Shown: one piece after another, positions 2,352 to 23,245 of the stretch
How positions within the stretch are numbered: the first letter of the stretch is position 1
Layout of the letters: every line of letters starts with the position of its first letter
Assembly (NCBI RefSeq): GCF_057098645.1
Contig: NZ_CM169472.1
Reading direction: 5' to 3' (one strand)
Length of the DNA: 64,000 bases
Notes under the pieces: generated by a model
Seen by the model: the letters and a program-made list of their open reading frames with translations, nothing else
The model's database searches: none
What the model was told of the DNA's origin: nothing
Translations under genes and position numbers: made by a program

Positions 2352-3674
2352 ATGAGTGCGTTAAGGGATGAAGTATCTATGAAGGTTGCGTTCTCTAATG
2401 GCATGATAAACAAATTATGCAAAAGTTTTTTTTATAGTCATGGTAAGGAGCAGCCTTGTATTCAAGTCGGTAAAGCATTAGAAGATTTTGTTTTTTGGCT
2501 TGCATATAATGATGAGGAGATTGCAAAATGTGCTAGTAGGTTATTAAAAGCATATGGCCCCCAATTAGGTATAAGTAACCTTCATAATGCGAAAAGATTA
2601 TTGTTAGGTTTTTGTTCTGAAGCCTTCAATCGCATTGATGCTGATTTTTTGTCGCTTAATCCTGATAAGATTTGTGTTGATGATATTATAACGCAAGTTC
2701 ATAGAAAAAATCTTAGTGAGATGTTTAAGTGTTATATACTTTCACGAATAAAATCCTGTCCATATATTTATAATCTTGGGTGTGCTGGCTTTGATGGGAA
2801 GCTTGAGCTTAGAGAAAATTTATTTTTATATGGCCCGGGGCTAGGGGTGGAATTACTTTCTGATATTAAAGACAAAACTGACATCAAGGTTCCTGTTGAT
2901 TTTTATGATGATGAATATATGCGGCATAAACCAATTGGGAAATATTTTCGACAGTCAAAATCCTGCTTGGTGGTGGCATATGCTTCATCAGAGGATAAAG
3001 CGGTGAAAATGTTTGATAGTTTGTTTGGAGCTTTATGTCTTGCAGTTGATAATCCTTTTGCGATTAATCGAGTTGCTGTTAATAATCTAGTTGAGTCTTT
3101 TGGTGTCGGGAAATATCATGAAAGTGAGTTTCGGGTGAATATTCCGTCTGTAAATAATTTAAATATAACGGATTCAACCTTGGCGATACTTACAAAAATA
3201 CTTTCATCACCTGATAAAAGGATGTTGTCTGCTCTTTCCTTTATAGCGCACGGGTGGAGAGATGACAAACGTGAAAGGTTTTTGAATCAATTTATAGCAT
3301 TGGATGCTATGTATGGAACCAATAATGGTAATAAAAATTCAATTATTGGCGGTGTTTGCAGAGATGCGGCGAAAATTATTGATATTGATTCAAAAATAGG
3401 AATAATCTATGAGCTTAGGTGTAAGTTTGTTCATGGAGATATTTCATCGTTATCTGATAATGATAGCTATCGAAAGTTTATTGATAGCTATGGCGTGGAC
3501 CCTATTGTTTCTCTTTTTGAAATTCTTAAAGAATGCGTCCTTAATTATAATGGTACTTACAAAACGCCAAAAGATGTTGGAAAGGCAGATAGGTCTATTT
3601 GCGTTCCTGCTGAGTTGCTTCCAGCGGTTGAGAGGATGATAGCGGAATACAGTGGAGTTAAAAAAACAAACTAA
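2352..3674 (+). CDS. Hypothetical cargo protein with a C-terminal HEPN-like domain (Rx4H), possibly an RNase-type abortive-infection effector
   Basis: 440-aa uninterrupted ORF with AAGGA 11 nt upstream of the ATG. It is strongly AT-rich (19/60 G+C at 2401-2460 versus 43/60 at 9001-9060 in the phage backbone). It has FIALDAMYG (aa 314-322) and YELRCKFVHGD (R356..H361, nt 3417-3434). It sits in the P2 old/tin position. The function is an inference. Confidence 0.6.
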   Translation: MSALRDEVSMKVAFSNGMINKLCKSFFYSHGKEQPCIQVGKALEDFVFWLAYNDEEIAKCASRLLKAYGPQLGISNLHNAKRLLLGFCSEAFNRIDADFLSLNPDKICVDDIITQVHRKNLSEMFKCYILSRIKSCPYIYNLGCAGFDGKLELRENLFLYGPGLGVELLSDIKDKTDIKVPVDFYDDEYMRHKPIGKYFRQSKSCLVVAYASSEDKAVKMFDSLFGALCLAVDNPFAINRVAVNNLVESFGVGKYHESEFRVNIPSVNNLNITDSTLAILTKILSSPDKRMLSALSFIAHGWRDDKRERFLNQFIALDAMYGTNNGNKNSIIGGVCRDAAKIIDIDSKIGIIYELRCKFVHGDISSLSDNDSYRKFIDSYGVDPIVSLFEILKECVLNYNGTYKTPKDVGKADRSICVPAELLPAVERMIAEYSGVKKTN

Positions 3675-3815
3675 AGATGTTCTTTTTAGCCTCGCCTGCA
3701 TTAGGTGCATAAATTTGCATTCATTTTCAAATATATCTTTTGACAGCGAGCACCAGAACAGGCGCTTGCCGGGGGGATGATGCACCTGCATTAAAACCGC
3801 CCCATGAAGCGGGCG

Positions 3816-3834
3816 GGCGAGGCGGGGAAAGCAC
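3816..3834 (+). other. cos: P2 cos cohesive-end sequence (19 nt)
   Basis: GGCGAGGCGGGGAAAGCAC is present exactly. This matches the P2 cohesive end as I recall it. It lies at the expected position between the old/tin locus and portal gene Q. Confidence 0.75.
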
Positions 3835-3975
3835 TGCGCGCTGGCGGTGGTGCTGATTTTATTTTTTCAGCGTCTGAGCGCGTCGTGAAGGCGCTTAGTC
3901 TGCCCGTTGAGGCGTTGGTGTGTCTGCGGGGTGTTTTGTGCGGTGGTGAGCGTGTGAGGGCGTGATGACGGGGTG

Positions 3976-3999
3976 TAAAAAAGCCGCCCGCAGGCGGCG
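3976..3999 (-). terminator. Putative rho-independent terminator of the P-Q late operon
   Basis: GC hairpin GCCGCC/GGCGGC (3983-3999). On the minus strand it is followed by a T-run (A-run 3977-3982 on plus). It lies 5 nt past the Q stop. Confidence 0.55.
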
Positions 4000-4003
4000 A
4001 TGT

Positions 4004-5038
4004 TCAGCCGTTGTCAGTGTCCAGTGAGTAGTTTTTAAAGCGGATGACCTCCTGACCGAGCCAGCCGTTTATCTCGCGGATCCTGTCCTGTAGCGGGATA
4101 AGCTCATTGCGGACAAAGACCTTTACCACTTTCTCAATATCACCCAGCGACCCGACGTTCTCCGGCTTGCCGCCCATCAACTGAAAGGGGATGCGGTGCG
4201 CGTCCAGCAGGTCAGCGGCGCTGGCTTTTTTGATATTAAAAAAATCGTCCTTCGTTGCCACTTCACTGAGCGGGATAATTTTAATGCCGTCGGCTTTCCC
4301 CTGCGGGGCATAGAGAAACAGGTTTTTAAAGTTGTTGCGGCCTTTCGACTTGACCATGTTTTCGCGAAGCATTTCGATATCGTTGCGATCCTGCACGGCA
4401 TCGGTGACGTACATGATATATCCGGCATGAGCGCCGTTTTCGTAATACTTGCGGCGGAACAGCGTGGCCGACTCATTCAGCCAGGCAGAATTAAGGGCGC
4501 TGAGATATTCCGGCAGGCCGTACAGCTCCTGATTAATATCCGGCTCCAGCAGGTGAAACACGGAGCCGGGCGCGAAGGCTGTCGGCTCGTTGAAGGACGG
4601 CACCCACCAGTAAACATCCTCCTCCACGCCACGGCGGGTATATTTTGCCGGTGAGGTTTCCAGTCTGATGACCTTACCGGTGGTGCTGTAACGCTTTTCC
4701 AGAAACGCATTACCGAACACCAGAAAATCCAGCACAAAGCGGCTGAAATCCTGCTGGGAAAGCCACGGGTGCGGAATAAACGTTGAAGCCAGAATATTAC
4801 GTTTGACGTAAATCGGTGAGCTGTGATGTACGGCAGCACGCAGGCTTTTTGCCAGACCGGTAAAGCTGACCGGTGGCTCATACCATCTGCCGTTACTGAT
4901 GCACTCGACGTAATCCAGAATGTCACGGCGGTCGAGTACCGGCACCGGTTCACCAAAGGTGAATGCCTCCATTTTCGGGGCGCTGGCGGTCATTTTTTTT
5001 GCCGCAGGTTGCGGTGTTTTCCCTTTTTTCTTGCTCAT
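4004..5038 (-). CDS. Q: Portal protein gpQ
   Basis: 344-aa ORF, the same length as P2 Q. It overlaps the start/stop of P in the usual P2 arrangement. Confidence 0.93.
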   Translation of the reverse strand: MSKKKGKTPQPAAKKMTASAPKMEAFTFGEPVPVLDRRDILDYVECISNGRWYEPPVSFTGLAKSLRAAVHHSSPIYVKRNILASTFIPHPWLSQQDFSRFVLDFLVFGNAFLEKRYSTTGKVIRLETSPAKYTRRGVEEDVYWWVPSFNEPTAFAPGSVFHLLEPDINQELYGLPEYLSALNSAWLNESATLFRRKYYENGAHAGYIMYVTDAVQDRNDIEMLRENMVKSKGRNNFKNLFLYAPQGKADGIKIIPLSEVATKDDFFNIKKASAADLLDAHRIPFQLMGGKPENVGSLGDIEKVVKVFVRNELIPLQDRIREINGWLGQEVIRFKNYSLDTDNG

Positions 5039-6810
5039 CAGTAAAACTCCAGAATGGTGGATGTCAGCGGGGTGCTGATACCGGCGGTGAGTGGCTCATT
5101 TAACAGGGCGTGCATGGTCGCCCAGGCGAGGTCGGCGTGGCTGGCTTCCTCGCTGCGGCTGGCCTCATAGGTGGCGCTGCGTCCGCTGCTGGTCATGGTC
5201 TTGCGGATAGCCATAAACGAGCTGGTGATGTCGGTGGCGCTGACGTCATATTCCAGACAGCCACGGCGAATAACGTCTTTTGCCTTGAGCACCATTGCGG
5301 TTTTCATTTCCGGCGTGTAGCGGATATCGCGTGCGGCGGGATAGAACGAGCGAACGAGCTGGAACACGCCGACACCGAGGCCGGTGGCATCAATTCCGAT
5401 GTATTCGACGTTGTATTTTTCGGTGAGTTTGCGGATGGATTCAGCCTGGGTGGCAAAGTCCATGCCTTTCCACTGGTGACGTTCAAGTATTCTGAATTTG
5501 CCACCGGCCACCACCGGCGGTGCCAGCACCACGCATCCGGCACTGTCGCCACGGTGTGACGGGTCGTAACCAATCCATACCGGGCGGGAGCCGAACGGAT
5601 TGGCGGCAAAGGGTGCATAGTCTTCCCATTCTTCCAGCGTGTCGACCATGCAGCGTTGCAGCTCCTCGAACGGGAACACCGACGCCTTGTCGTCAACAAA
5701 TTCACACATGAACAGGTTTTTAAAATCGTCGGCGCTGTTTTCGCGTTTGAGCTGCTCAATGTCGAACAGCGTGCAGCCACCTTTCAGGGCGTCCTCAATG
5801 GTGACAATCTGTCGCCACTGGCCGTCCGCACAGAGAAGCCCACCGGCAAGGGCGTTATGACTGACGTCGATTTCCACGCGTTCGGCGGCGCTGGCGCGTC
5901 CCCGGTTATACAGTTCACCCGACCAGAACGGGTAGGCGTCGTGCGCCAGCGTGGACGGGGTGGAGAAATAGGTCGAACGCAGGTGACTCTGTGAGGCCAT
6001 ACCTGATGCCACCTTACGCAGTACCTGAAAATTCGGGATCCAGAAAATCTCGTCGACGTACAGGTCGCCGTTATGGCTCTGCGCGGTGTTGGAGTTGGTG
6101 CCGAGAAAAATCAGTTTTGCGCCGTTATTGCCCAGGACAATCGGATCACCGGTCAGGTCAACGTCAACCAGACGGGCAAAGGCGATGATGTATTCGCGGA
6201 ACACATACGCCTGCGTTTTACTGGCCGACAGAAAAATCTGGTTATGACCGGTTTTCAGGGCGCGCAGCAGCGCCTCGCGGGAAAAATAAAATGTCGCGCC
6301 AATCTGGCGGGATTTCAGGATATCGCGGATGCGGTGCTCAAGCCCGGCGCGATACCAGTGCAACTGATAATCGAAAGACTGCTCAAAGAAAATCTGCTCC
6401 AGCTTTTCGATGGCCTCGTCACTGAAAAAATTCTTTTTCGGTTTGCGCCGCCCGCCTTTGTTGCGGTTAGCGACGTTCGGATTAAGGTCTGCCTCGTTGC
6501 CGGTCTGGCTGTAGCGGTTTACCCGTGCCAGTCGTTCAATCTGGCGTCCGAGCAGGTCAATTTCCTTGAAATCACCGCCGGTTTTCTGCGGTTTGATGAT
6601 GAGCTGGGTCAGCCGCGCTTCCAGACTCATTTCGACACGGCTGATGGGGGCAACGCTGTCCCAGCCGTCGCGCTGTTTCCAGCTCTGCACCGTCGGGCGT
6701 TTCATCTGCAACATGGCGGCAATCTGCGGCACGGAAAATCCCTGCCAGTACAGCAGCGCCGCCTGACGACGCGGGTCGTGTAAAAGAGTGGTGTCTGTGG
6801 TGATGGTCAT
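5038..6810 (-). CDS. P: Terminase large subunit gpP
   Basis: I chose the start at MTITTDTTLLHDPRRQ, giving 590 aa as in P2 P. The ORF track extends 10 codons further upstream. Confidence 0.93.
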   Translation of the reverse strand: MTITTDTTLLHDPRRQAALLYWQGFSVPQIAAMLQMKRPTVQSWKQRDGWDSVAPISRVEMSLEARLTQLIIKPQKTGGDFKEIDLLGRQIERLARVNRYSQTGNEADLNPNVANRNKGGRRKPKKNFFSDEAIEKLEQIFFEQSFDYQLHWYRAGLEHRIRDILKSRQIGATFYFSREALLRALKTGHNQIFLSASKTQAYVFREYIIAFARLVDVDLTGDPIVLGNNGAKLIFLGTNSNTAQSHNGDLYVDEIFWIPNFQVLRKVASGMASQSHLRSTYFSTPSTLAHDAYPFWSGELYNRGRASAAERVEIDVSHNALAGGLLCADGQWRQIVTIEDALKGGCTLFDIEQLKRENSADDFKNLFMCEFVDDKASVFPFEELQRCMVDTLEEWEDYAPFAANPFGSRPVWIGYDPSHRGDSAGCVVLAPPVVAGGKFRILERHQWKGMDFATQAESIRKLTEKYNVEYIGIDATGLGVGVFQLVRSFYPAARDIRYTPEMKTAMVLKAKDVIRRGCLEYDVSATDITSSFMAIRKTMTSSGRSATYEASRSEEASHADLAWATMHALLNEPLTAGISTPLTSTILEFY

Positions 6811-6879
6811 GAATACCTCGCCGTGATGAATACACGGCAAGGCTACTGAGTCGCGCCCCGCGATTCGCTAAGGTGCTGT

Positions 6880-6897
6880 TGTGTCAGTGATAAGCCA
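6880..6897. promoter_or_regulatory. Late-promoter activator (Ogr-type) partial dyad, TGT-N12-cCA, in the P/O divergent region
   Basis: TGTGTCAGTGATAAGCCA resembles the TGT-N12-ACA element known for P2 late promoters. It is nearly identical in pattern to the site upstream of FI (23155-23172). Confidence 0.45.
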
Positions 6898-6983
6898 TCC
6901 GGGACTGATGGCGGAGGATGCGCATCGTCGGGAAACTGATGCCGACATGTGACTCCTCTAATCACTATTCAGGACTCCTGACA

Positions 6984-7838
6984 ATGGCAAAAAAAGTCTC
7001 AAAATTCTTTCGTATCGGCGTTGAGGGTGACACCTGTGACGGGCGTGTCATCAGTGCGCAGGATATTCAGGAAATGGCCGAAACCTTTGACCCGCGAGTC
7101 TATGGTTGCCGCATTAACCTGGAACATCTGCGCGGCATCCTGCCTGACGGTATTTTTAAGCGTTATGGCGATGTGGCCGAACTGAAGGCCGAAAAGATTG
7201 ACGATGATTCGGCGCTGAAAGGCAAATGGGCGCTGTTTGCGAAAATCACCCCGACCGATGACCTTATCGCGATGAACAAGGCCGCGCAGAAGGTCTATAC
7301 CTCAATGGAAATTCAGCCGAATTTTGCCAATACCGGCAAATGTTATCTGGTGGGGCTGGCCGTCACCGATGACCCGGCAAGCCTCGGCACGGAATACCTG
7401 GAATTCTGCCGCACGGCAAAACACAACCCTCTGAACCGCTTCAAATTAAGCCCTGAAAACCTGATTTCAGTGGCAACGCCTGTTGAGCTGGAATTTGAAG
7501 ACCTGCCTGAAACCGTGTTCACCGCCCTGACTGAAAAGGTGAAATCCATTTTTGGCCGCAAACAGGCCAGCGATGACGCCCGTCTGAATGACGTGCATGA
7601 AGCGGTGACCGCTGTTGCTGAACATGTGCAGGAAAAACTGAGCGCCACTGAGCAGCGCCTCGCTGAGATGGAAAACGCCTTTTCCGCACTTAAGCAGGAG
7701 GTGACTGACAGGGCGGATGAAACCAGCCAGGCATTCACCCGCCTGAAAAACAGTCTCGACCACACCGAAAGTCTGACCCAGCAGCGCCGCAGCAAGGCCA
7801 CCGGCGGTGGCGGTGACGCCCTGATGACGAACTGCTGA
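6984..7838 (+). CDS. O: Capsid scaffold protein gpO
   Basis: The start at MAKKVSKFFRIGVEGDTCDG gives 284 aa as in P2 O. The longer ORF-track start is rejected. Confidence 0.93.
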   Translation: MAKKVSKFFRIGVEGDTCDGRVISAQDIQEMAETFDPRVYGCRINLEHLRGILPDGIFKRYGDVAELKAEKIDDDSALKGKWALFAKITPTDDLIAMNKAAQKVYTSMEIQPNFANTGKCYLVGLAVTDDPASLGTEYLEFCRTAKHNPLNRFKLSPENLISVATPVELEFEDLPETVFTALTEKVKSIFGRKQASDDARLNDVHEAVTAVAEHVQEKLSATEQRLAEMENAFSALKQEVTDRADETSQAFTRLKNSLDHTESLTQQRRSKATGGGGDALMTNC

Positions 7839-7892
7839 CCGGCGTCAGTCCGGGAAAACCTTCACGATTAACCCTTAATTTCAGGAAAAACT

Positions 7893-8966
7893 ATGCGCCA
7901 GGAAACCCGCTTTAAATTTAATGCCTACCTGTCCCGTGTTGCCGAACTGAACGGCATCGACGCCGGTGATGTGTCGAAAAAATTCACCGTTGAACCGTCG
8001 GTCACCCAGACCCTGATGAACACCATGCAGGAGTCCTCTGACTTTCTGACCCGCATCAACATTGTGCCGGTCAGCGAAATGAAAGGGGAAAAAATTGGTA
8101 TTGGTGTCACCGGCTCCATCGCCAGCACCACAGACACCGCCGGTGGCACCGAGCGTCAGCCGAAGGACTTCTCGAAGCTGGCGTCAAACAAGTACGAATG
8201 CGACCAGATTAACTTCGATTTTTATATCCGCTACAAAACGCTTGACCTGTGGGCGCGTTATCAGGATTTCCAGCTCCGTGTCCGTAACGCCATTATCAAA
8301 CGCCAGTCCCTTGATTTAATCATGGCCGGTTTTAACGGCGTGAGGCGTGCCGAAACCTCTGACCGCAGCAGTAACCAGATGCTGCAGGATGTGGCGGTCG
8401 GCTGGCTGCAGAAATACCGCAATGAAGCCACGGCGCGCGTGATGAGCAAGGTTACTGACGAGGAAGGTCACACGACCTCTGAGGTCATCCGCGTGGGTAA
8501 GGGCGGTGATTATGCCAGCCTCGATGCACTGGTGATGGATGCGACCAACAACCTGATTGAGCCGTGGTATCAGGAAGACCCTGACCTTGTGGTGATTGTG
8601 GGGCGTCAGCTACTGGCGGACAAGTATTTCCCCATCGTCAACAAGGAGCAGGACAACAGCGAGATGCTGGCCGCTGACGTCATCATCAGCCAGAAACGCA
8701 TCGGCAACCTGCCAGCGGTACGCGTCCCGTACTTCCCGGCGGATGCGATGCTCATCACGAAGCTGGAAAACCTGTCCATCTACTACATGGATGACAGCCA
8801 TCGTCGCGTGATTGTGGAAAACCCGAAACTCGACCGCGTGGAGAACTACGAGTCAATGAACATTGATTACGTGGTGGAAGACTACGCCGCCGGTTGTCTG
8901 GTGGAAAAAATTAAGGTCGGTGACTTCTCCACACCGACTAAAGTGACCGCAGAGCCGGGAGCGTAA
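7893..8966 (+). CDS. N: Major capsid protein gpN
   Basis: 357-aa ORF in the P2 N position and of the P2 N length. Confidence 0.93.
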   Translation: MRQETRFKFNAYLSRVAELNGIDAGDVSKKFTVEPSVTQTLMNTMQESSDFLTRINIVPVSEMKGEKIGIGVTGSIASTTDTAGGTERQPKDFSKLASNKYECDQINFDFYIRYKTLDLWARYQDFQLRVRNAIIKRQSLDLIMAGFNGVRRAETSDRSSNQMLQDVAVGWLQKYRNEATARVMSKVTDEEGHTTSEVIRVGKGGDYASLDALVMDATNNLIEPWYQEDPDLVVIVGRQLLADKYFPIVNKEQDNSEMLAADVIISQKRIGNLPAVRVPYFPADAMLITKLENLSIYYMDDSHRRVIVENPKLDRVENYESMNIDYVVEDYAAGCLVEKIKVGDFSTPTKVTAEPGA

Positions 8967-10528: not shown

Positions 10529-10810
10529 ATGACAGCAGAAGAAAAAAGCGTCCTGTCGCTTTTCATGATTGGGGTGCTGATTGTTGTCGGCAAGGTGCTT
10601 GCCGGTGGTGAACCCATCACCCCGCGTCTGTTTATCGGGCGCATGTTGCTCGGTGGTTTTGTCTCGATGGTTGCCGGTGTTGTTCTGGTGCAGTTTCCTG
10701 ACCTGTCACTGCCTGCGGTGTGCGGCATCGGCTCCATGCTGGGTATCGCCGGTTATCAGGTGATTGAGATTGCCATTCAGCGCCGCTTTAAGGGCAGGGG
10801 GAAACAGTAA
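10529..10810 (+). CDS. Y: Holin gpY
   Basis: 93-aa ORF with hydrophobic helices and a charged C-terminus, in the P2 Y position. Confidence 0.88.
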   Translation: MTAEEKSVLSLFMIGVLIVVGKVLAGGEPITPRLFIGRMLLGGFVSMVAGVVLVQFPDLSLPAVCGIGSMLGIAGYQVIEIAIQRRFKGRGKQ

Positions 10811-11733
10811 TGCCGGTAATTAACACGCATCAGAATATCGCCGCCTTTCTCGACATGCTGGCGGTGTCCGAAGGGACGGCAAATCATCCGCTGACGAAAA
10901 ACCGGGGCTATGACGTGATAGTCACCGGACTGGACGGGAAGCCGGAAATCTTCACCGACTACAGTGACCACCCGTTCGCGCATGGCCGACCGGCGAAGGT
11001 GTTTAACCGTCGCGGTGAAAAGTCCACGGCCTCCGGTCGCTATCAGCAGCTTTACCTGTTCTGGCCGCACTACCGCAAACAGCTTGCCCTGCCGGATTTC
11101 AGTCCGTTGTCACAGGACAGACTCGCCATTCAGTTGATCCGCGAACGCGGTGCACTGGATGACATCCGGGCGGGACGCATTGAGCGCGCCATTTCACGCT
11201 GTCGCAATATCTGGGCGTCCCTGCCGGGTGCCGGTTACGGTCAGCGTGAGCATTCACTGGAAAAACTGGTCACCGTCTGGCGTACCGGCTTAAACGGAGT
11301 AAACACCATGAAGAAATTATCCCTTTCACTGATGCTGAATGTGTCGCTGGCGCTGATGCTGGCACTGTCACTGATTTACCCGCAGAGCGTGGCCGTCAGT
11401 TTTGTCGCTGCCTGGGCGATTCTGGCGACGGTTATCTGTGTGGTTGCCGGTGGTGTCGGCGTGTATGCCACTGAGTATGTACTTGAGCGCTACGGACGGG
11501 AGCTGCCGCCGGAATCGCTGGCCGTGAAGATTGTCACGTCGCTGTTTTTGCAGCCGGTGCCGTGGTGCAGACGGGCGGCGGGTCTGGTGGTGATGGTGGC
11601 GACGTTTATCTCGCTGGTCGCTGCCGGGTGGATTTTTACTGCACTGATTTATCTCGTGGCGTCGCTGTTTTTCCGGCTGATACGTAAAGCCTGTCGTCAG
11701 CGTTTTGAGGGGCGGGAACTATGTCAAAGCTGA
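10810..11733 (+). CDS. K: Endolysin gpK (lambda R-like transglycosylase) reading through in frame into LysA
   Basis: The N-terminal ~160 aa align with lambda R (FLDMLAVSEGT ... NIWASLPGAGYGQ). No in-frame stop occurs before MKKLSLSLML (LysA). TAA triplets at 11291 and 11300 are both in the +1 frame. Confidence 0.8.
   Translation: MPVINTHQNIAAFLDMLAVSEGTANHPLTKNRGYDVIVTGLDGKPEIFTDYSDHPFAHGRPAKVFNRRGEKSTASGRYQQLYLFWPHYRKQLALPDFSPLSQDRLAIQLIRERGALDDIRAGRIERAISRCRNIWASLPGAGYGQREHSLEKLVTVWRTGLNGVNTMKKLSLSLMLNVSLALMLALSLIYPQSVAVSFVAAWAILATVICVVAGGVGVYATEYVLERYGRELPPESLAVKIVTSLFLQPVPWCRRAAGLVVMVATFISLVAAGWIFTALIYLVASLFFRLIRKACRQRFEGRELCQS
11308..11733 (+). CDS. lysA: LysA (multi-pass membrane lysis-timing protein), possible internal-start product
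   Basis: The ATG at 11308 gives 141 aa, the P2 LysA length. The product has four hydrophobic segments. It shares its frame with K, so separate expression depends on internal initiation. Confidence 0.7.
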   Translation: MKKLSLSLMLNVSLALMLALSLIYPQSVAVSFVAAWAILATVICVVAGGVGVYATEYVLERYGRELPPESLAVKIVTSLFLQPVPWCRRAAGLVVMVATFISLVAAGWIFTALIYLVASLFFRLIRKACRQRFEGRELCQS

Positions 11734-13263: not shown

Positions 13264-14508
13264 CTAAATCCAGCGAAGGTAGAATAGTAAGTAAGGATCT
13301 CTGATGTCTAATACATCGCTTTCTTGATCCCACTCGATAATACTGCTATTTGCAGCATCGTTGGCAATAGCAGTTGAGTGCTGACATGCACTGGTTATAC
13401 TAGAACCGCTTGGGCTATCGCCATGACATAACGAGGTCACTCGAGATACTAAGTCAGAATAACGAAATGTCAGCGTCGGAGGATTAGAAGCAATGGCTTT
13501 TAATAAAAAGACATAAACATCGCCTTGCCAGCCATCTTTTGATATATATGATTTTCTATCAGAACCACGCACTTTAGGTCCTTCGCGCATTTTATCCACA
13601 ATCGTGCTGTAATCTGCTGACTGAAGTGTACGTTTGCACACTCTTTGCAATGTGGCAATATCTTTTTGATATTTTATTGAAGTATCAGAAGTCTCTCTGA
13701 CATTCATTTCAAAACAAGAGTTTAAGCATAAATATTGCATTAGTTGTGGTGAGCCTGCGGACTCTTTTACTAACTCACTTATAACTTCATCAGAGGCATC
13801 TATATTGAGTAGTTTGAATCCTTTCTGAGCAATAATTTTTAAGGTTGATTCATCCCAATAATCAAAATCAATATTAAATATCCGGCCTCGTAAGTCAGAG
13901 TTACCCCGAAGAACATCATCAGAATGATATGGCACTGATGCACAAATAAATTTGCAGCCATTAGCTATGGCATCTTTTATTTGTCGTGATAGTTCGGCTT
14001 GAGCTTCTTTAGCAATATAGTGAAAATCATCGATAAAGATAACATAATCTGTGTTTGCGATTTCTCGCTTCATTAGTTGAAAGAGATCTATCGCAAATGA
14101 TTCTGAGGTTTGATCTGCTGTACTATAACCAGCGGATGCAGACCCTTTAAGACTACCTTTTGCTAAAATTACACCAGCTTGGGCAGATAATTCTCCTGTA
14201 CTTGAAAATGATGAGGTGCCAGTTTTACTTTGAACTTGGGTTACTGGTACACCAAGTATGTCGAAAACGCGCTTCCATAAATCATTAGCAGATTGAACCC
14301 CTGCTCCAGTTACTTCGATTAGCCTCTGGGTTCCAAGTACTTTCTTAACAAAGACAGTTTTTCCTGATTTTGATGGGCCAGAGATAGAAATCAGCATGGT
14401 GCCCATCTCAAGTGTATCGATTAACTGTTGCTGTTTAGATACTAGGTGATCCTCAACCAGTGTGTGGTTGGGATAACCGCCTGGGATAAAAACCTCTGTC
14501 GCCTTCAT
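13264..14508 (-). CDS. Orphan AAA+ (ORC/Cdc6- or ExeA/TniB-like) ATPase of unknown function; candidate defence cargo
   Basis: 414-aa ORF antisense to the tail operon. Walker A is GPSKSGKT (nt 14356-14379). Walker B is YVIFIDDFH. A sensor-like SAGSPQLMQYLC is present. It is AT-rich (17/60 G+C at 13801-13860). The function is an inference. Confidence 0.6.
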   Translation of the reverse strand: MKATEVFIPGGYPNHTLVEDHLVSKQQQLIDTLEMGTMLISISGPSKSGKTVFVKKVLGTQRLIEVTGAGVQSANDLWKRVFDILGVPVTQVQSKTGTSSFSSTGELSAQAGVILAKGSLKGSASAGYSTADQTSESFAIDLFQLMKREIANTDYVIFIDDFHYIAKEAQAELSRQIKDAIANGCKFICASVPYHSDDVLRGNSDLRGRIFNIDFDYWDESTLKIIAQKGFKLLNIDASDEVISELVKESAGSPQLMQYLCLNSCFEMNVRETSDTSIKYQKDIATLQRVCKRTLQSADYSTIVDKMREGPKVRGSDRKSYISKDGWQGDVYVFLLKAIASNPPTLTFRYSDLVSRVTSLCHGDSPSGSSITSACQHSTAIANDAANSSIIEWDQESDVLDIRDPYLLFYLRWI

Positions 14509-16507: not shown

Positions 16508-17111
16508 TTCGCGACTGCTGCCGACCGGCTCATCACCGCTTGAAGTCGCTGCCGCAAAAGCCTGTGCGGAAATTGAAAAAACGCCGGTCAGTATTCGTGA
16601 GCTGTGGAACCCGGACACCTGCCCGGCAAATCTGCTGCCGTGGCTGGCGTGGTCATTTTCGGTTGACCGCTGGGATGATAAGTGGCCGGAAGCGACAAAA
16701 CGCGCTGTTATCCGCGATGCGTATTTCATTCACTGCCATAAGGGCACTATAGGCGCAATCCGGCGTGTGGTGGAGCCGCTCGGCTATCTGATTGAGGTGA
16801 GGGAGTGGTGGCAGCTCAACGAGGAGCCGGGGACGTTCCGCATCGTTGTTGGCGTGCTTGAGCAGGGTATTACCGAGGAAATGTATCAGGAGCTGGAGCG
16901 CCTCGTTGCTGATGCAAAACCGGCAAGCCGCCATCTGACGGGACTGGCTATCAGTTTAAGTACAACCGGCAACATTTTTGCCGGTGCGGGATGCTATCAC
17001 GGTGACGCCCTGACGGTTTATCCCTACACCCCGGAGGCCATTATTGTCGGAGGGGATTATTTCCCGGCCTCGGCCATTCATTTAATTGATAACCTGAGAG
17101 TAAACGCATGA
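16500..17111 (+). CDS. I: Baseplate/tail-fibre attachment protein gpI
   Basis: 203-aa ORF in the P2 I position. It overlaps the end of J and the start of H. Confidence 0.85.
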   Translation: MSDSRLLPTGSSPLEVAAAKACAEIEKTPVSIRELWNPDTCPANLLPWLAWSFSVDRWDDKWPEATKRAVIRDAYFIHCHKGTIGAIRRVVEPLGYLIEVREWWQLNEEPGTFRIVVGVLEQGITEEMYQELERLVADAKPASRHLTGLAISLSTTGNIFAGAGCYHGDALTVYPYTPEAIIVGGDYFPASAIHLIDNLRVNA

Positions 17112-18388
17112 CAGTGAAATACTACGCCATTCTGACTAATCAGGGCGCAGCACGGCTGGCTAACGCGACGATGCTCGGCAGTAAGCTGAATCTGACGCAA
17201 ATGGCCGTTGGTGATGCGAATGGTGTCTTGCCGACACCAGACCCGGCACAGACAAAACTGATTAACCAGAAACGCATCGCGCCGCTGAATCTTCTGAGTG
17301 TTGACCCGAACAACCAGAGCCAGATTATTGCGGAGCAAATCATCCCTGAGAACGAGGGCGGATTCTGGATCCGTGAGATTGGGCTTTATGATGATGAAGG
17401 CGTACTCATTGCGGTGGCGAACTGCCCGGAAACGTACAAACCGCAGTTGCAGGAAGGCAGTGGTCGTACCCAGACTATCCGCATGATTCTGGTTGTCACG
17501 AATACCGAAGCTATTACGCTGAAAATCGACCCGTCGGTGGTACTGGCGACCCGTAAATACGTGGATGATGAAGTCCTGGAATTAAGGCTGTATGTGGATG
17601 ACCAGATGAGAAACCACATTGCCGCACAGGATCCTCATAGCCAGTATGCACAGAAACATAATCCGACATTTACCGGAGAACCAAAAGCGCCGACGCCTGC
17701 CGCAGGGAATAACACCACGCGGATTGCGACCACTGAGTTTGTTCAGGCCGCTATTACCGCTCTGATTAACGGTGCGCCAGCCACGCTGGACACACTGAAA
17801 GAAATTGCCGCAGCCATTAACAATGACCCGAAATTCAGTACCACCATTAACAATGCGCTGTCAGGTAAGCAGCCACTGGATGAGACGCTGACTCATTTGA
17901 GTGGAAAGGATGTTGCCGGTCTTCTCGCATACCTTGGTTTGGGAGAAGCGGCAAAACGGAATGTGGGCAACGGGGAAAACCAAATCCCTGATATGTCTTT
18001 CTGGACGGCTACTGGTGGCAATGGAAATTTTGTGATTCGTCAACCTGACGGGCTAATCATTCAGATGGTTACTGTAAGTATAAGCGGCCCAGTGGCGATG
18101 AATGGAATGACTGATAATGCTTATGCCATCACAGGTTCTAATAAGTCTTATATTGCCACAGCCACATTGCCCTTTGTATTTCCTAATAAGGTGCTGGGCG
18201 TTATCCCTCTGGTATCAACAACAGCCTATGGTGGTGTATCCAGTAATATTACAGGTTCATACGCGACGGCGGTTTGTTCTTTTGCCGCTGTCAGGGGGAA
18301 TAATACGATTGTGTTCAAAGTCGACAAACCACTGAATGCAGCCTTTCCTTCAGATACCAGCGTCTCAGCGTTAATCATTGGACGGTAA
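17108..18388 (+). CDS. H: Tail fibre protein gpH (constant N-terminus fused to the currently expressed variable C-terminus)
   Basis: 426 aa with the P2 H-like N-terminus MTVKYYAILTNQGAARLANA. An inversion crossover site lies inside the gene at 17922-17947 (codons LLAYLGLGE). Confidence 0.9.
   Translation: MTVKYYAILTNQGAARLANATMLGSKLNLTQMAVGDANGVLPTPDPAQTKLINQKRIAPLNLLSVDPNNQSQIIAEQIIPENEGGFWIREIGLYDDEGVLIAVANCPETYKPQLQEGSGRTQTIRMILVVTNTEAITLKIDPSVVLATRKYVDDEVLELRLYVDDQMRNHIAAQDPHSQYAQKHNPTFTGEPKAPTPAAGNNTTRIATTEFVQAAITALINGAPATLDTLKEIAAAINNDPKFSTTINNALSGKQPLDETLTHLSGKDVAGLLAYLGLGEAAKRNVGNGENQIPDMSFWTATGGNGNFVIRQPDGLIIQMVTVSISGPVAMNGMTDNAYAITGSNKSYIATATLPFVFPNKVLGVIPLVSTTAYGGVSSNITGSYATAVCSFAAVRGNNTIVFKVDKPLNAAFPSDTSVSALIIGR
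17922..17947 (+). repeat. 26-bp invertase crossover site (gix/cix/pix-like), left
   Basis: TTCTCGCATACCTTGGTTTGGGAGAA. Its reverse complement shares TTCTCCCAAACCAA and the central TT with the site at 22512-22537. It fits the Hin/Gin-family site pattern TTC..N..AAACC..GGTTT..GAA. Confidence 0.8.
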
Positions 18389-18390
18389 GA

Positions 18391-18795
18391 ATGAACTCAG
18401 TATTCTTTTCACCCGGAAGTAAAAGTTTTTATCTGCAAGAATTGTTTCCAGAATATGAGGATGCGGGAACGCTTCCTGATGATGTTATTGAAATTACCCG
18501 AGAAACATATGAGCAATTTCTTGGGCTGCATCCAGAAGGGAAAGAAATTGGCGCTGACAGTTCAGGACGGCCAATATGGATTAATTCCCCGCCGCCTTCA
18601 AAAGAGGATGAGGTGCTGGCGGCTGAAATGAAAAAAATATCTTTGGTTTCAGAAGTCAATACCTACATCAATACCCATCAGTGGCCTGGCAAAGCTGCTA
18701 TTGGTCGTCTGAAAGGTGACGAGCTGGAACAATATAATTTATGGCTGGATTATCTGGACGCACTGGAACTGGTTGATACCTCCAGTGCTCCAGAT
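18391..18795 (+). pseudogene. G: Tail fibre assembly chaperone gpG, 5' part (135 codons), interrupted by an IS
   Basis: The reading frame ends ...LVDTSSAPD at the IS boundary. The supplied ORF continues into IS sequence. Confidence 0.85.
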
Positions 18796-18854
18796 TGCGT
18801 ATTCCGCTCTATTCGATCACGGATTGGCATCGAAGTCCGATCAGCGATTCGCAT
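18796..18854. repeat. IS21-family istB-proximal terminal repeat block
   Basis: TCGATCACGGATTGGCAT (18813-18830) and CCGATCAGCGATTCGCAT (18837-18854) are inverted copies of the ATGCCAA-N-TGATCGA motif found at the other end. Confidence 0.7.
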
Positions 18855-18894
18855 CCATTCGATCAACCGGGAACTTAACTTTTTCTACCGCTTT

Positions 18895-19650
18895 TTAACG
18901 CGTTTTTTCGCTGCTTTCCACTACCGGGGGATTTTTCCTCAGTGACTCTCCCTGAAGGACCACTCGGTGTGAGTTATGTACCAGTCTGTCCAGGATGGCA
19001 TCTGCTGTTGTTGGGTTCTCCATCAGACCATGCCATTTATCTACCGGGAACTGGCTTACCACTATCGTGCTGCTTTGTCCGTAACGATCCTCTATGAGCT
19101 CCAGAAGGTCATTACACTGGGCGTTACTTAACTGTTCCAGCCCCAGATCGTCCAGGATTAGAACCTGTATTTTTTGCAACTGTTTCAGATATTTCAGCCA
19201 GCTGCCATCAACACGTCCCTGAGCCAGTTGTTCCAGTAATCGCCCGGTTCTACAGTACCGGACGCTGTGTTTCTGTCGACATGCCTGTTCGCCCAGCGCA
19301 TTGGCTATCCAGCTCTTGCCACATCCTGTCGGACCGGTTATCAGCAGGTTTTTCCTGTGGGTTATGTAGTGGCCGTTCAGCAGTTCTCTCATCTGTTCAG
19401 CCCGCAGACCTCTTGAGGCCGGATAGCGCAGCCCTTCCGGTGTTGCCTGGTATTTCAGGCCGGCATTTTTTCTCAACCGTGCCACACGGCTGTTTTCCCT
19501 GCTCAGAAGCTCGTCATCAACCAGCAGCGTCAGCCTTTCCTCGAACGACAGTTCGTCGTAGGTCTGAGGCGTTTCCCGCTGCCGTATCAGGCTCCCGGCC
19601 ATCGCCGGGAGTTTCAGTTGGGTCAGTTTGTTTAACAGGTTATCACTCAT
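18895..19650 (-). CDS. istB: IS21-family helper ATPase IstB
   Basis: The start at MSDNLLNKLTQLKLPAM is preceded by AAGGAA. The product is 251 aa with Walker A GPTGCGKSW and Walker B VLILDDLG. Confidence 0.88.
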   Translation of the reverse strand: MSDNLLNKLTQLKLPAMAGSLIRQRETPQTYDELSFEERLTLLVDDELLSRENSRVARLRKNAGLKYQATPEGLRYPASRGLRAEQMRELLNGHYITHRKNLLITGPTGCGKSWIANALGEQACRQKHSVRYCRTGRLLEQLAQGRVDGSWLKYLKQLQKIQVLILDDLGLEQLSNAQCNDLLELIEDRYGQSSTIVVSQFPVDKWHGLMENPTTADAILDRLVHNSHRVVLQGESLRKNPPVVESSEKTR

Positions 19651-19666
19651 ACTGTTGTTCCTTCTG

Positions 19667-21202
19667 TCAGTGGTAGTAGCCCGGACCACGCAGGTTTTCA
19701 TGCTCTGAAGCATATGCCGGATGTTGTTCGCCCTGGCGGGATAATGGAAGCTCCAGGTTCTCCCGATGGTGACGCAGCAGATTGTCGATAAAGCGTCTGT
19801 CAGGGGCGTTATAGTGCAGGGCAACGTAACAGGCCTTTTCCAGCCGTTCCGGGCCGTATTTTTTCTGAAGTGCCAGCAGCCCCAGAACTGCACGATAAGC
19901 CAGTTCCGGATGGGGTTTTGCCTTCAGCATGGATTCAACCACCCGGCCTGTGGACGGGCCCGTACGTTTTCCCTGCTCGATCAGGCGTTCCGGTGTCCAT
20001 GTCCCGTGCTGCCGGTGGCGCTCTGGCATGTGAAGCGGATTGGTTGTGTGTTTATATTCATGTGTGCTGCGCGGATGTTGCGCCACACACTGCCCCTTGT
20101 GCCAGAGCTGTACCACCGACTGCCCCGCCTTCAGTGACAGACGCTGACCGACCAGTTCGTGTGGAACGGAGTACCAGTGACGGGCATATTCAACGTGGTA
20201 GTCAGGGCCAACCTTCACAGCTTTGTATTCCGTGTATTCATAAGGTGCCAGAGGCAGCGGAGAGAGTGCTGGCGCATCCAGTATGCGGAAGCGTTCTGCA
20301 CGGGTTTGATTGCCGTACCCCTTCATTGGCCGGTTATTCATGTCTGTCAGTAACTCCCTAAGGCGCGCATTCAGCGCCCTGAGCGTGTGGAAGGTTTCAT
20401 TACGGATGCGGGCAAGAAGCCATCGTTCAACGATGAGGACGCCGTTTTCTGCTTTTGGTTTATCTTTAGGTTTGCGTGGTCGGGCCGGGATGATAACCGT
20501 GCCATAGTGCTCAGCCAGTGCCTGATAACTGTCGTTGATGACAGGCTCATATCGATCGGCCTTTTTCACTGCGCTTCTGAGGTTATCGGGGATGAGCAGC
20601 TTCGGTACGCCGCCCAGGAAGGTCAGGCAACGGCTGTGGGCATTTAACCATGACATCATGTCCTGACCTTCGCACGCTTCAACGTAGGTATAGTTGGACG
20701 CCCCCATTACGGCCACGAAGATTGCCACGCGGCGTATCTCACCGGTGTCCGGATTAATAACAGGAACCGTAGGACCACAGAAGTCGATAAAAAGCTTTTC
20801 GCCGGCACGATGCTCCTGGCGCATGGAGAGACGTCGCGTTTTTTTCCACTCCCGGTAGCAACGGCAGAAGTGCGAGTATCCCATCGCTTTGTTACCCGCC
20901 TGTGCCTTGTATTCCATCCACAACAGTTGCCGCGTCACACCTGGTTTTCTCATTTCCGTATCGAAGTACAACATGTCAGGCATTACAAGCTCTGATGCAA
21001 AGGTGTCTTTGGGCGGAAAAATGAGTTTCTCCAGCGTGTCATGGGATATATCAGCAGGTAATGGCCATGACAGAGAAGAGGCTTTGAAGCGGGCAAGAAC
21101 CTCAAAAACGGTTGAGGCGCTGATGTGTAACGTCAGTCCGATACAACGGTTAGTCAGCTTCTTGTCGAACTTGAGCTGAAGGATCTTAAAACAGGTTTCC
21201 AT
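19667..21202 (-). CDS. istA: IS21-family transposase IstA
   Basis: The start at METCFKILQLKF is preceded by AGGAG. The product is 511 aa with an N-terminal HTH-like region and a DDE-type core. Its stop lies 16 nt before the istB start. Confidence 0.85.
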   Translation of the reverse strand: METCFKILQLKFDKKLTNRCIGLTLHISASTVFEVLARFKASSLSWPLPADISHDTLEKLIFPPKDTFASELVMPDMLYFDTEMRKPGVTRQLLWMEYKAQAGNKAMGYSHFCRCYREWKKTRRLSMRQEHRAGEKLFIDFCGPTVPVINPDTGEIRRVAIFVAVMGASNYTYVEACEGQDMMSWLNAHSRCLTFLGGVPKLLIPDNLRSAVKKADRYEPVINDSYQALAEHYGTVIIPARPRKPKDKPKAENGVLIVERWLLARIRNETFHTLRALNARLRELLTDMNNRPMKGYGNQTRAERFRILDAPALSPLPLAPYEYTEYKAVKVGPDYHVEYARHWYSVPHELVGQRLSLKAGQSVVQLWHKGQCVAQHPRSTHEYKHTTNPLHMPERHRQHGTWTPERLIEQGKRTGPSTGRVVESMLKAKPHPELAYRAVLGLLALQKKYGPERLEKACYVALHYNAPDRRFIDNLLRHHRENLELPLSRQGEQHPAYASEHENLRGPGYYH

Positions 21203-21306
21203 AGTGCTCCTGGATTTTCTCTTTCTGGACATTGACGTCTCCACTGGTTTAAACACGGCAATGGAGACTGTGGTGAAAAGAGTTAATTCCCGGAGTGACT
21301 GGCAGG

Positions 21307-21434
21307 ATGCCAATCAATGATCGGAAGCATGCCAAATCGTGATCGATTGTGATGCCAAACTGTGATCGGAGATGGATGCCAAATCATGATCGATTCGAAT
21401 GCCAAACTGCGATCGATTCAGATGCCATTTTGCA
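21307..21434. repeat. IS21-family istA-proximal terminal repeat array (six phased copies)
   Basis: ATGCCAA(A/T)NNNTGATCG(A/G)-like copies start at 21307, 21329, 21352, 21376 and 21399. A terminal half copy starts at 21422. Spacing is 22-24 bp. Confidence 0.8.
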
Positions 21435-21440
21435 CCAGAT

Positions 21441-21479
21441 ATTGAATGGCCTACGCCTCCGGTAGTTCAGGCCAGATGA
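21441..21479 (+). pseudogene. G: Tail fibre assembly chaperone gpG, 3' remnant (12 codons plus stop)
   Basis: After the target duplication the G frame continues IEWPTPPVVQAR*. This parallels the ...APDVIWPELPEA* end of the inverted paralogue. Confidence 0.75.
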
Positions 21480-22056
21480 CATCCGGCGCGGTGCTGATAT
21501 CTGTTGCAGTCACCGCGTCAATGTAATCCAGCACAGCGTTAAGCCGGGTTGTTTCTGCCTGCGTCAGCTTCCGCCCGGCCTGCAATTTCAGCTGAATCAG
21601 ACTAATGGAAGCCATAGCCGCATCAATCAGTGACTGGCGCCGTACTTCTGCCGCGTCTACTGCGGCGTTATGCTGTGCCTCAGTGTCGGTCACCCATTTC
21701 TCACCATCCCATTTATCGTATGACGTTAACGGGGCGATAGTGGTTGTATTTTCAGGGTAATCACCCGGAACTGTGATTTCTTTTGATTCTCCTGTTTCGG
21801 TGCTATAGACGATTTCACCGCGATGGTCTGGCACATATTCCCATGAGTTAAAATCTGCAGAACGGCAAATTGCATAACCAGCTTTATATGAGCCAGGAGC
21901 ATCTAAACAGGAACATGCCGGGATACCGACACCCACAGCAAGATATTCAGTTGATGTGGAAATATATTCCCGTGTTTCACCATCATAATTATAAACGGTA
22001 ATGTCTCCGGCCTTTGTGGCGATGAGTTCATTATTTAATACAGCTTTACTTATCAT
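21451..22056 (-). CDS. Alternative tail fibre assembly chaperone (G'), intact, inverted orientation
   Basis: 201-aa ORF with a C-terminus (QAETTRLNAVLDYIDAVTATDISTAPDVIWPELPEA) typical of Tfa/U-type chaperones. It is convergent with and overlaps the G 3' end. Confidence 0.85.
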   Translation of the reverse strand: MISKAVLNNELIATKAGDITVYNYDGETREYISTSTEYLAVGVGIPACSCLDAPGSYKAGYAICRSADFNSWEYVPDHRGEIVYSTETGESKEITVPGDYPENTTTIAPLTSYDKWDGEKWVTDTEAQHNAAVDAAEVRRQSLIDAAMASISLIQLKLQAGRKLTQAETTRLNAVLDYIDAVTATDISTAPDVIWPELPEA

Positions 22057-22537
22057 GCAGCCCTCACAATATAATTAAAGGCGATGTTACGGGAGCGGGT
22101 TTCAGATGCTGTGCGAACTGAGCGAGATGCGTCGAATGTCCAGTTATAAGCGCCATAACCCTCAATAATTTCGGCTTCCTTTAGACCTGTAGATAATACT
22201 TGCCCATGTTGACTAAATGGCCCTGAACTAAGTACGTCTCTAAAAAGCTGGGTACGCCCAAAAGAACCAACAATATTCTGAATTGCATCATTCTGTGCAG
22301 ATAATAAGTTACGACCAGAGTCAATCCCGCGCCCATCATCCCAGCCACGAATAAATTCACCGCGTAAATCTGGTAATTTTAATGTTGGGTAAGCCTTTGC
22401 CAGATTTGGGTACTTTTCAGAAGAAAATACTGCTCCGTTACATTTTAGCCACCCCATTGGCGGAGTGGCTGAAGGCCACGGAACAGGCACACCAACCGGT
22501 AATGCAGAGCCTTCTCCCAAACCAACGTTTAAGAAAA
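22053..22537 (-). CDS. Promoterless alternative tail-fibre C-terminal cassette (H'), expressed only after inversion
   Basis: The frame is continuous from the crossover site (FLNVGLGE) through a tail-collar-like domain (PVPWPSATPPMGWLKCNG). It is in the same codon phase as the site inside H. The ATG of the supplied ORF is not a real start. Confidence 0.8.
22512..22537 (-). repeat. 26-bp invertase crossover site (gix/cix/pix-like), right
   Basis: The plus strand reads TTCTCCCAAACCAACGTTTAAGAAAA. It is inverted relative to 17922-17947 and lies 55 nt upstream of the invertase start codon. Confidence 0.8.
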
Positions 22538-22592: not shown

Positions 22593-23186
22593 ATGCTTAT
22601 TGGCTATGTACGCGTGTCAACAAATGACCAGAACACGGAATTGCAGCGTAATGCGCTGGAGTGCGCAGGATGTGAGCTGATTTTTGAGGACAAAATCAGC
22701 GGCACGAAGTCCGACAGGCCGGGGCTGAAAAAACTGCTCAGAACATTATCGGAAGGTGACACTCTGGTTGTCTGGAAGCTGGACAGGCTGGGGCGTAGTA
22801 TGCGGCATCTGGTCATTCTGGTTGAGGAACTGCGCGAACGCGGCGTTAATTTTCGCAGCCTGACGGATGCTATTGATACCAGCACGCCGATGGGGCGTTT
22901 TTTCTTTCATGTGATGGGTGCCCTGGCTGAAATGGAGCGAGAACTCATTGTCGAGCGGACACGCGCCGGACTGGAAGCGGCCAGAGCCAAAGGTCGTATT
23001 GGTGGCAGACGACCGAAACTCACCGCGAGTGAGTGGGAGCAGGCCGGGCGTTTGCTGGCTGCAGGGGAGTCACGTCAACGCGTGGCACTGATTTTTGATA
23101 TTGGTCTGTCCACGCTCTATAAAAAATTTCCCTCATCAGCGACAAAGAATAAATTGTGTCATCCCTTAGCCAACCGGGACAAATAG
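22593..23186 (+). CDS. Serine DNA invertase (Hin/Gin/Pin/Cin family)
   Basis: The start at MLIGYVRVSTNDQNTELQRNAL is preceded by AGGGGG. The product is 197 aa and closely resembles e14 Pin and Mu Gin as I recall them, including the catalytic Ser in YVRVST and the C-terminal HTH. Confidence 0.92.
   Translation: MLIGYVRVSTNDQNTELQRNALECAGCELIFEDKISGTKSDRPGLKKLLRTLSEGDTLVVWKLDRLGRSMRHLVILVEELRERGVNFRSLTDAIDTSTPMGRFFFHVMGALAEMERELIVERTRAGLEAARAKGRIGGRRPKLTASEWEQAGRLLAAGESRQRVALIFDIGLSTLYKKFPSSATKNKLCHPLANRDK
23155..23172. promoter_or_regulatory. Late-promoter partial dyad TGT-N12-cCA upstream of FI
   Basis: TGTGTCATCCCTTAGCCA lies 74-91 nt upstream of the FI ATG and has the same pattern as 6880-6897. 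Confidence 0.4.
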
Positions 23187-23245
23187 CCTGACATCTCCGG
23201 CACAACTGAAAATATCACTCACCCATTAACCACGGAGTTAAACGG

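Follow-up and report, generated by a model that had tools for sequence, protein, structure and literature searches.

The P/Pin system of the lambdoid remnant e14 and the C/Cin system of the plasmid prophages P1 and P7 employ an invertase of the Gin/Hin family to exchange alternative tail-fibre C-termini, each of which is encoded together with its cognate tail-fibre assembly (tfa) gene. In the G segment of phage Mu, where Gin selects between the S/U and the S'/U' pairs, a constant fibre N-terminus is followed by a crossover site, a fibre C-terminus with its tail-fibre assembly protein (Tfa), the inverted Tfa' and C-terminus', the second site, about 55 nucleotides (nt) and the invertase gene. 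A module with the order H-G-G'-H'-invertase between the genes I and FI, as annotated in the Escherichia phage pro483 (Peduovirus), is present in many Escherichia coli P2-like prophages. The locus described here shares the organisation of these systems (with those of e14, P1 and P7 at the level of architecture) and lies in a P2-like prophage within a stretch of 64,000 nt, hereafter referred to as the window, from NCBI RefSeq assembly GCF_057098645.1, contig NZ_CM169472.1. Its gene G, which encodes the tail-fibre chaperone of the present orientation, is interrupted by an insertion sequence (IS).

Taken as a whole, the region is very likely the host-range module of a P2-like (Peduovirus pro483-type) E. 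coli prophage that has been hit by an IS in G. The serine invertase encoded at 22593-23186 would recombine two inverted sites of 26 base pairs (bp), one located within H and the other bordering an alternative cassette that has no promoter, and inversion would put H' and G' in place of the 151 C-terminal codons of H and the G that follows them. An active IS21-family element would have transposed into G between codons 135 and 136, leaving a 6-bp duplication. In the present orientation, H would be paired with a G deprived of its conserved WPxxP tail and extended by 49 residues from the IS, while after inversion an intact H'/G' pair would be made.

Crossover sites, invertase and alternative fibre cassettes

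The components of the module, with lengths in amino acids (aa), are as follows:
17108..18388, plus strand: tail-fibre gene H as now assembled, 426 aa (Pfam Phage_tail_fib N-terminus, E=1.3e-62)
17922..17947, no strand: left 26-bp crossover site (gix/hix-like), TTCTCGCATACCTTGGTTTGGGAGAA, inside H, with the centre TT at 17934-17935
18391..18795, plus strand: tail-fibre assembly gene G, codons 1-135 (Caudo_TAP, E=8e-23, positions 2-124 of 131 of the hidden Markov model)
21451..22056, minus strand: G', alternative tail-fibre assembly gene (Caudo_TAP, E=1.2e-31), intact and silent in the present orientation
22053..22525, minus strand: H' cassette, alternative fibre C-terminus (Collar domain, E=2e-15)
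22512..22537, no strand: right 26-bp crossover site, TTCTCCCAAACCAACGTTTAAGAAAA, with the centre AA at 22524-22525
22593..23186, plus strand: serine DNA invertase, 197 aa (Resolvase, E=2e-52; HTH_7, E=1.1e-12)
22615..22677, no strand: candidate recombinational enhancer, a pair of 15-mers resembling the Fis consensus, with their centres at +30 and +78 of the invertase gene

The preliminary description of this DNA had proposed two inverted 26-bp sites with shared sequence and a central TT, both encoding GLGE in the same codon phase. The two sites are indeed in inverted orientation, are imperfectly palindromic with a matching central dinucleotide and have in common TTGGTTTGGGAGAA, which includes the central TT (inverted pair I3 of the inverted-repeat listing); GLGE is encoded by both, each in codon phase 1 of its open reading frame (ORF). 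Since inverted repeats of such quality are frequent in the region, the site pair alone would be unconvincing. A core pattern, TTN5AAACCNNGGTTTN5AA, made up of the positions at which both gix sites of the Mu record agree, was used to scan the whole 64 kilobases (kb) with at most one mismatch. Exactly these two sites were returned, where 0.01 would be expected by chance, and each fits the pattern with one mismatch. A third crossover site, as in a shufflon, was considered and rejected, as the gix core pattern gives only two sites in the window.

The ATG of the invertase gene at 22593 lies 55 nt past the right site (54 nt in Mu), at the position first described for a Pin/Gin-like invertase. The assignment is upheld by the domain matches and by the likeness of the product to Gin: the catalytic Ser9 is present, in MLIGYVRVSTNDQ, the protein matches the Gin crystal structure PDB 3uj3 with E=1.6e-94, and 148 of its 197 residues (75%) are identical to Mu Gin, as are 194 of 197 to the invertase of E. 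coli YZ3E2001, an IS-free relative. An enhancer bound by Fis, acting in cis and situated in the 5' part of the invertase gene, is a known arrangement, and the two Fis-like 15-mers fit it, being 48 bp apart and at the same positions as their counterparts in Mu gin. About 1% of shuffled sequences give such a pair; with a degenerate consensus, and with coding conservation as a confounding factor, the pair is no more than suggestive of a recombinational enhancer.

The constant part of H extends over 17108-17933 and its exchangeable C-terminal cassette over 17934-18388; the H protein is identical to that of YZ3E2001 at 421 of 426 residues. The domain matches to Phage_tail_fib, Caudo_TAP and Collar substantiate the content first assigned to the segment, namely an expressed H C-terminus with G and an inverted H' with G'. 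G' had been reported as intact with 201 aa. Its intactness is confirmed by 199 of 200 residues identical to G' of YZ3E2001, while the length needs amending, as relatives annotate 200 aa and 201 results from the first ATG here. The H' cassette is identical to the version in the relatives at 164 of 169 residues and after inversion would join residues 1-275 of H in frame, giving a predicted H with an open frame of 432 aa, 428 of which are identical to H of the naturally flipped SC492. The proposal that inversion would yield H' with an intact G' is thus well supported. A promoter and terminator scan of the module found promoter-like sites in no greater number than in shuffled sequences and nothing that would drive H' and G' in the present orientation, which is compatible with, though no proof of, a promoterless cassette.

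The relatives used for comparison are the E. coli strains YZ3E2001 (L001), EP91A (L002), SC492 (L003), PEC408 (L004), GPEC60-33-648 (L005), CB7286 (L006) and MEI2O1-23 (L007). A flipped-junction query, built from the constant part of H and the H' cassette, was searched against complete E. coli genomes; seven of them contain the flipped junction uninterrupted at 98-99% identity, and ten contain the current junction. SC492 and PEC408 are fully flipped, with the order H::H', G', inverted G, inverted H cassette and invertase, and the G and G' protein accessions of SC492 are those of YZ3E2001. The latter two genomes are collinear up to the left site, inverted between the sites (3935-5884 of L001) at 99.8% identity and collinear again past the right site. 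Their alignments overlap by 15-18 bp, which are the shared half-sites, and the breakpoints lie inside the 26-bp sites. The left site of the window is identical to that of L001-L004 and its right site to that of the flipped PEC408; both right-site variants, that of the window and that of the relatives, occur in flipped genomes. The module is widespread, with 193 complete E. coli genomes, including O157:H7 strains, covering at least 80% of the 6.4-kb tail region. With both orientations present in relatives and the breakpoints within the sites, genome comparison identifies the segment, at the level of the lineage, as a Gin/Pin-type invertible host-range switch, as had been proposed. Inversions in P2-like prophages flip in cultures of enteropathogenic E. 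coli (EPEC) E2348/69 (Goldberg et al. 2014, PMC4272514), and the recombinases at EPEC prophage loci are described there as close hin homologues.

The IS21-family element in G

The insertion and its boundaries comprise the following features:
18790..18795, no strand: target-site duplication CCAGAT, left copy, 6 bp (empty site in YZ3E2001)
18796..21434, minus strand: IS21-family insertion sequence, 2639 bp, with IS21 domains, TG...CA termini and reiterated subterminal repeats
18895-19653, minus strand: istB, 252 aa (IstB_IS21, E=1e-60), intact frame
19667-21202, minus strand: istA, 511 aa (rve and Mu-transpos_C_2 domains), intact frame
21435..21440, no strand: target-site duplication CCAGAT, right copy, 6 bp (empty site in YZ3E2001)
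21441..21479, plus strand: displaced 3' end of G, IEWPTPPVVQAR plus stop, overlapping the 3' end of G'

Elements of the IS21 family carry two consecutive genes, istA for a DDE transposase and istB for an AAA+ helper ATPase, and generate short target duplications of 4-8 bp. The element in G has the ends TGCGTATT... and ...ATTTTGCA and repeated GATGCCAAA..GATCG motifs at both of them (repeats D1, D2, I1, I2 and I6-I9); its IstB is labelled 'IS21-like element ISSso4 family' in RefSeq. At least 80% of the IS is carried by 232 plasmid records, many of them 100% identical over 1-2639 and belonging to E. coli and E. fergusonii in unrelated contexts, and up to 29 places of the IS occur in one chromosome record. 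Full-length identical copies in so many contexts and places point to a currently active element.

G is broken between codons 135 and 136, and the frame reads on through 49 IS codons to a stop at 18945, giving a 184-aa chimera. Joining 18391-18795 to 21441-21479 restores a G of 147 aa whose end, ...SSAPDIEWPTPPVVQAR, is identical to that of YZ3E2001, in which the same module at 98% identity has the exact empty site and a G of 147 aa. The boundaries, the CCAGAT duplication and this empty site establish that G is split after codon 135 by a 2.6-kb IS21-family element with a target duplication, and the comparison with an IS-free relative, which had been suggested as a check, matches the reconstructed join. 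Among complete E. coli genomes, none reaches 80% coverage of the region with the IS, and protein records lack the 184-aa chimera; the IS allele appears to be private to this genome.

The reconstructed G and G' are convergent and overlap by 29 bp at their 3' ends (21451-21479), so that their WPxxP-coding ends share the same DNA on opposite strands. The distance from the IS to the stop codon of G' is only 10 bp. As had been noted from the sequence, the IS more than doubles the invertible segment, which would measure about 1.95 kb without it and now spans about 4.6 kb. Lengths of about 4-5 kb are found in the C segment of P7 and the min region of p15B (PMC5786510), and 3.06 kb in the Mu G segment. 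Since about 4.6 kb is within this natural range, the change in size is without evident mechanistic consequence.

Truncated and odd variants of G in the protein database were considered as further IS insertions and rejected, as most are fragments from contig ends or carry a frameshift, which in several cases lies at an A7 homopolymer of G (18631-18637 of the window). The variants P0033, P0037, P0038 and P0097 are frameshifted exactly there and could reflect sequencing errors or slippage mutations. A chimeric protein from a Logan assembly, P0035, consists of G residues 1-79 and the C-terminal half of an invertase, which suggests that in another genome a deletion has fused the two genes at an AEME/AEMERE microhomology.

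Consequences for the chaperone and the prophage

The preliminary description had called the chaperone gene destroyed. Its interruption is plain and the word is too strong, as only the last 12 of 147 codons are displaced and 135 residues (92%) are kept. The displaced codons are those of a conserved end. The reconstructed G and G' conform to the Caudo_TAP type (Mu U / P2 G / TfaE), which has a variable N-terminal domain and a conserved C-terminal region ending in WPxxP, and the residues lost from G are W138, P139 and P142 of this motif. In an alignment of 19 sequences, including G' and Mu U/U', P139 and P142 are invariant, W138 is conserved in at least 90%, and the lost segment holds two of the four invariant columns; in an alignment of 40 sequences all three residues are invariant and the lost segment holds three of the eleven invariant columns. 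A PDB sequence search with G returned nothing meaningful, and G was hence judged by family conservation and an AlphaFold model. The model has a mean predicted local distance difference test (pLDDT) score of 90.7, and residues 131-140, which follow two long C-terminal helices, are confidently modelled with a pLDDT of about 91. PMC9608196, in its summary of North et al. 2019, assigns fibre binding to the variable N-terminal domain of Tfa and trimerisation to the conserved, helical C-terminal region. Loss of function is plausible in view of this trimerisation role and of the removal of the WPxxP residues from a confidently modelled stretch. We consider it fairly likely that the interrupted G has lost its function, so that the G of the present orientation would be, probably though not demonstrably, non-functional.

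The orientation of the segment at induction might then decide between infectious and fibre-defective particles, because just one of the two chaperones has lost its invariant C-terminus to the IS; a stochastic ON/OFF switch of virion competence would thereby be layered on the host-range switch. Such a working on/off switch is a plausible hypothesis of modest interest and, as an account of this prophage, unlikely. It requires an invertase that is presumably active in this strain, a truncated G that would fail and a prophage that would still yield virions. Several points weigh against the overall reading of the region. Inversion is established by genome comparison for the lineage and is presumed for this strain; the candidate Fis enhancer, suggestive only, depends on a degenerate consensus; and the interrupted G might retain activity, as 92% of its native residues remain and AlphaFold places both C-terminal helices (71-95 and 109-126) within the part that is kept. 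If the chimera of 135 native and 49 foreign residues still acts as chaperone for H, the IS would be neutral for the fibre, both orientations would be infectious and a plain two-state host-range switch would remain. The small number of displaced codons, the Caudo_TAP match that still covers model positions 2-124 of 131, and the retention of the predicted N-terminal domain and both long helices, the parts to which PMC9608196 in its summary assigns fibre binding and trimerisation, are all in its favour. The share of invariant columns in the lost segment and the basic and hydrophobic character of the appended 49-aa tail speak against neutrality, which is considered somewhat unlikely. It is very unlikely that the segment is instead frozen in this strain, as a fixed remnant with an inactive invertase or inactive sites. 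The evidence of inversion does come from relatives and not directly from this genome, and inactivation does occur, as in MEI2O1-23, where the invertase is frameshifted with about 600 bp of extra DNA (4925-5550). Here, however, the invertase is full length, retains Ser9 and agrees at 194 of 197 residues with the enzyme of relatives in both orientations, the two sites are those of L001-L004 and of the flipped L004, respectively, and the candidate Fis sites, with the same reservation about the consensus, are conserved in position with Mu gin.

A broader alternative, possible though short of probable, is that the prophage is already defective and decaying, with the IS as one of several lesions, no orientation giving a viable phage and the on/off switch moot. 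A 14-bp deletion between 9-bp direct repeats, GGCGTACCG, with its junction at about 11278/11279, removes the stop of the endolysin gene K and fuses it in frame to LysA in a 307-aa ORF (10810-11733 of the window), while the top-listed E. coli relatives carry the undeleted K-lysA form. This fusion is a possible second lesion of the prophage. With it, and with an early region that lies beyond the window, the prophage may be defective in either fibre state, which counts against the overall reading as well as against the on/off switch. Related prophages also carry lesions: besides the invertase of MEI2O1-23, they include ISEc12 in G of EP91A (4737-7315), in CB7286 (about 2700-5580) the IS66-family ISCro1 in the tfa gene in expressed position, and ISEc12 in the sheath gene FI of GPEC60-33-648 (about 6010-8590). 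Decay is opposed by the remaining structural and late genes from Q to ogr, all full length and 92-100% identical to pro483, and by the fusion itself, which preserves 159 of the 165 K residues and may have remained active.

Among the 60 closest matches (59 genomes), two of the three IS insertions within the 6.4-kb tail region fall in the 444-bp tfa gene in expressed position, and the window adds another. EP91A carries an independent insertion in the same 444-bp G; its orientation is the same, and it lies 60 bp further upstream than the insertion of the window. The tfa share exceeds the expectation from length, with tiny numbers, and the expressed-position tfa gene may be a preferred IS target, a weaker proposition than the on/off switch. 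The GC content of the cassettes is 43-47%, as against 53-60% in the rest of the late region, and a simple compositional target bias towards the AT-richer cassettes is the likeliest explanation of the excess.

Prophage setting and comparison with known systems

Positions 1 to about 29.9 kb of the window comprise most of the P2-like prophage, whose early region int/C/cox/B and left end lie outside the window. To the right of the phage genes are ogrK, ycaO, focA and pflB, and 5 kb of this flank, 99.5-99.6% identical to thousands of E. coli genomes, identify the window as E. coli chromosome. The queried pro483 proteins from A to Ogr map in P2 order and essentially at full length, the exceptions being the cargo gene gp11, the exchangeable H/G/H' cassettes, the interrupted G and the K fused to LysA. 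The nucleotide identity of the late region to pro483 is 95-97%, and the P2 late synteny is present as Q P O N M L X Y K lysA/B R S V W J I H G ... FI FII E T U D ogr.

The invertase takes the fun(Z) position of P2, and P2 homology resumes at the pF activator site, inside the 3' end of the invertase gene, in accordance with the placement in the Z/fun hotspot first put forward. The promoter region is the following:
23154..23245, plus strand: P2 pF late-promoter region, preceding the sheath gene FI and almost identical to the sequence annotated as pF in P2

As the F operon, which begins with FI, retains a promoter of its own beyond the switch, polar effects on the sheath and tube genes are not to be expected.

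Two further ORFs were observed at positions of P2-type cargo. A 414-aa P-loop/AAA-like ORF (13264-14508, minus strand) lies between the P2 genes S and V; it matches the PADLOC candidate defence family PDC-S59 with E=2.8e-31, is absent from L001, L003 and pro483, and is probably anti-phage cargo in a P2 hotspot. A 440-aa ORF (2352-3674, plus strand) lies between the replication gene A and the portal gene Q and gave no PADLOC match. The pro483 counterpart at this position is a DUF4238 cargo gene, and in P2 the position is that of tin/old.

For annotation, the comparison implies that the genes between I and FI labelled 'phage tail protein', 'hypothetical protein' and 'recombinase' constitute one invertible host-range module, of which an IS is able to disable one arm only. 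Should the two arms indeed differ in function, the strain would offer a natural test of whether the WPxxP tail of Tfa is required and of how the orientation at induction splits lysogens into productive and non-productive cells. No new mechanism is revealed. Systems of this kind are already well known and IS disruption of prophage tail genes is ordinary, while the specific IS allele is not on record.

Compared with Mu, the locus shares the layout, the fit of the sites to the core pattern, an invertase of 75% identity and the position of the Fis-consensus matches, and differs in that the host phage is a P2-like myovirus, the native segment measures 1.95 kb instead of 3.06 kb, the relationship between the fibre/Tfa cassettes is no more than distant (22% identity to U and U') and one Tfa is IS-interrupted. 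In contrast to pro483 and the P2-like E. coli prophages with the same module, this copy has a 2639-bp IS in G. It differs from pro483 also in its particular H/G cassette pair, with a G only 46% identical to that of pro483, and in the extra cargo between S and V. The prophage of EP91A is alike in prophage type, in G allele and in carrying an IS21-family element in the expressed-position G in the same orientation. There, however, the element is ISEc12, which at the nucleotide level resembles the IS of the window only over a single 91-bp stretch, at 73%, and it is 2579 bp long, is flanked by a 7-bp duplication and breaks G after codon 115.

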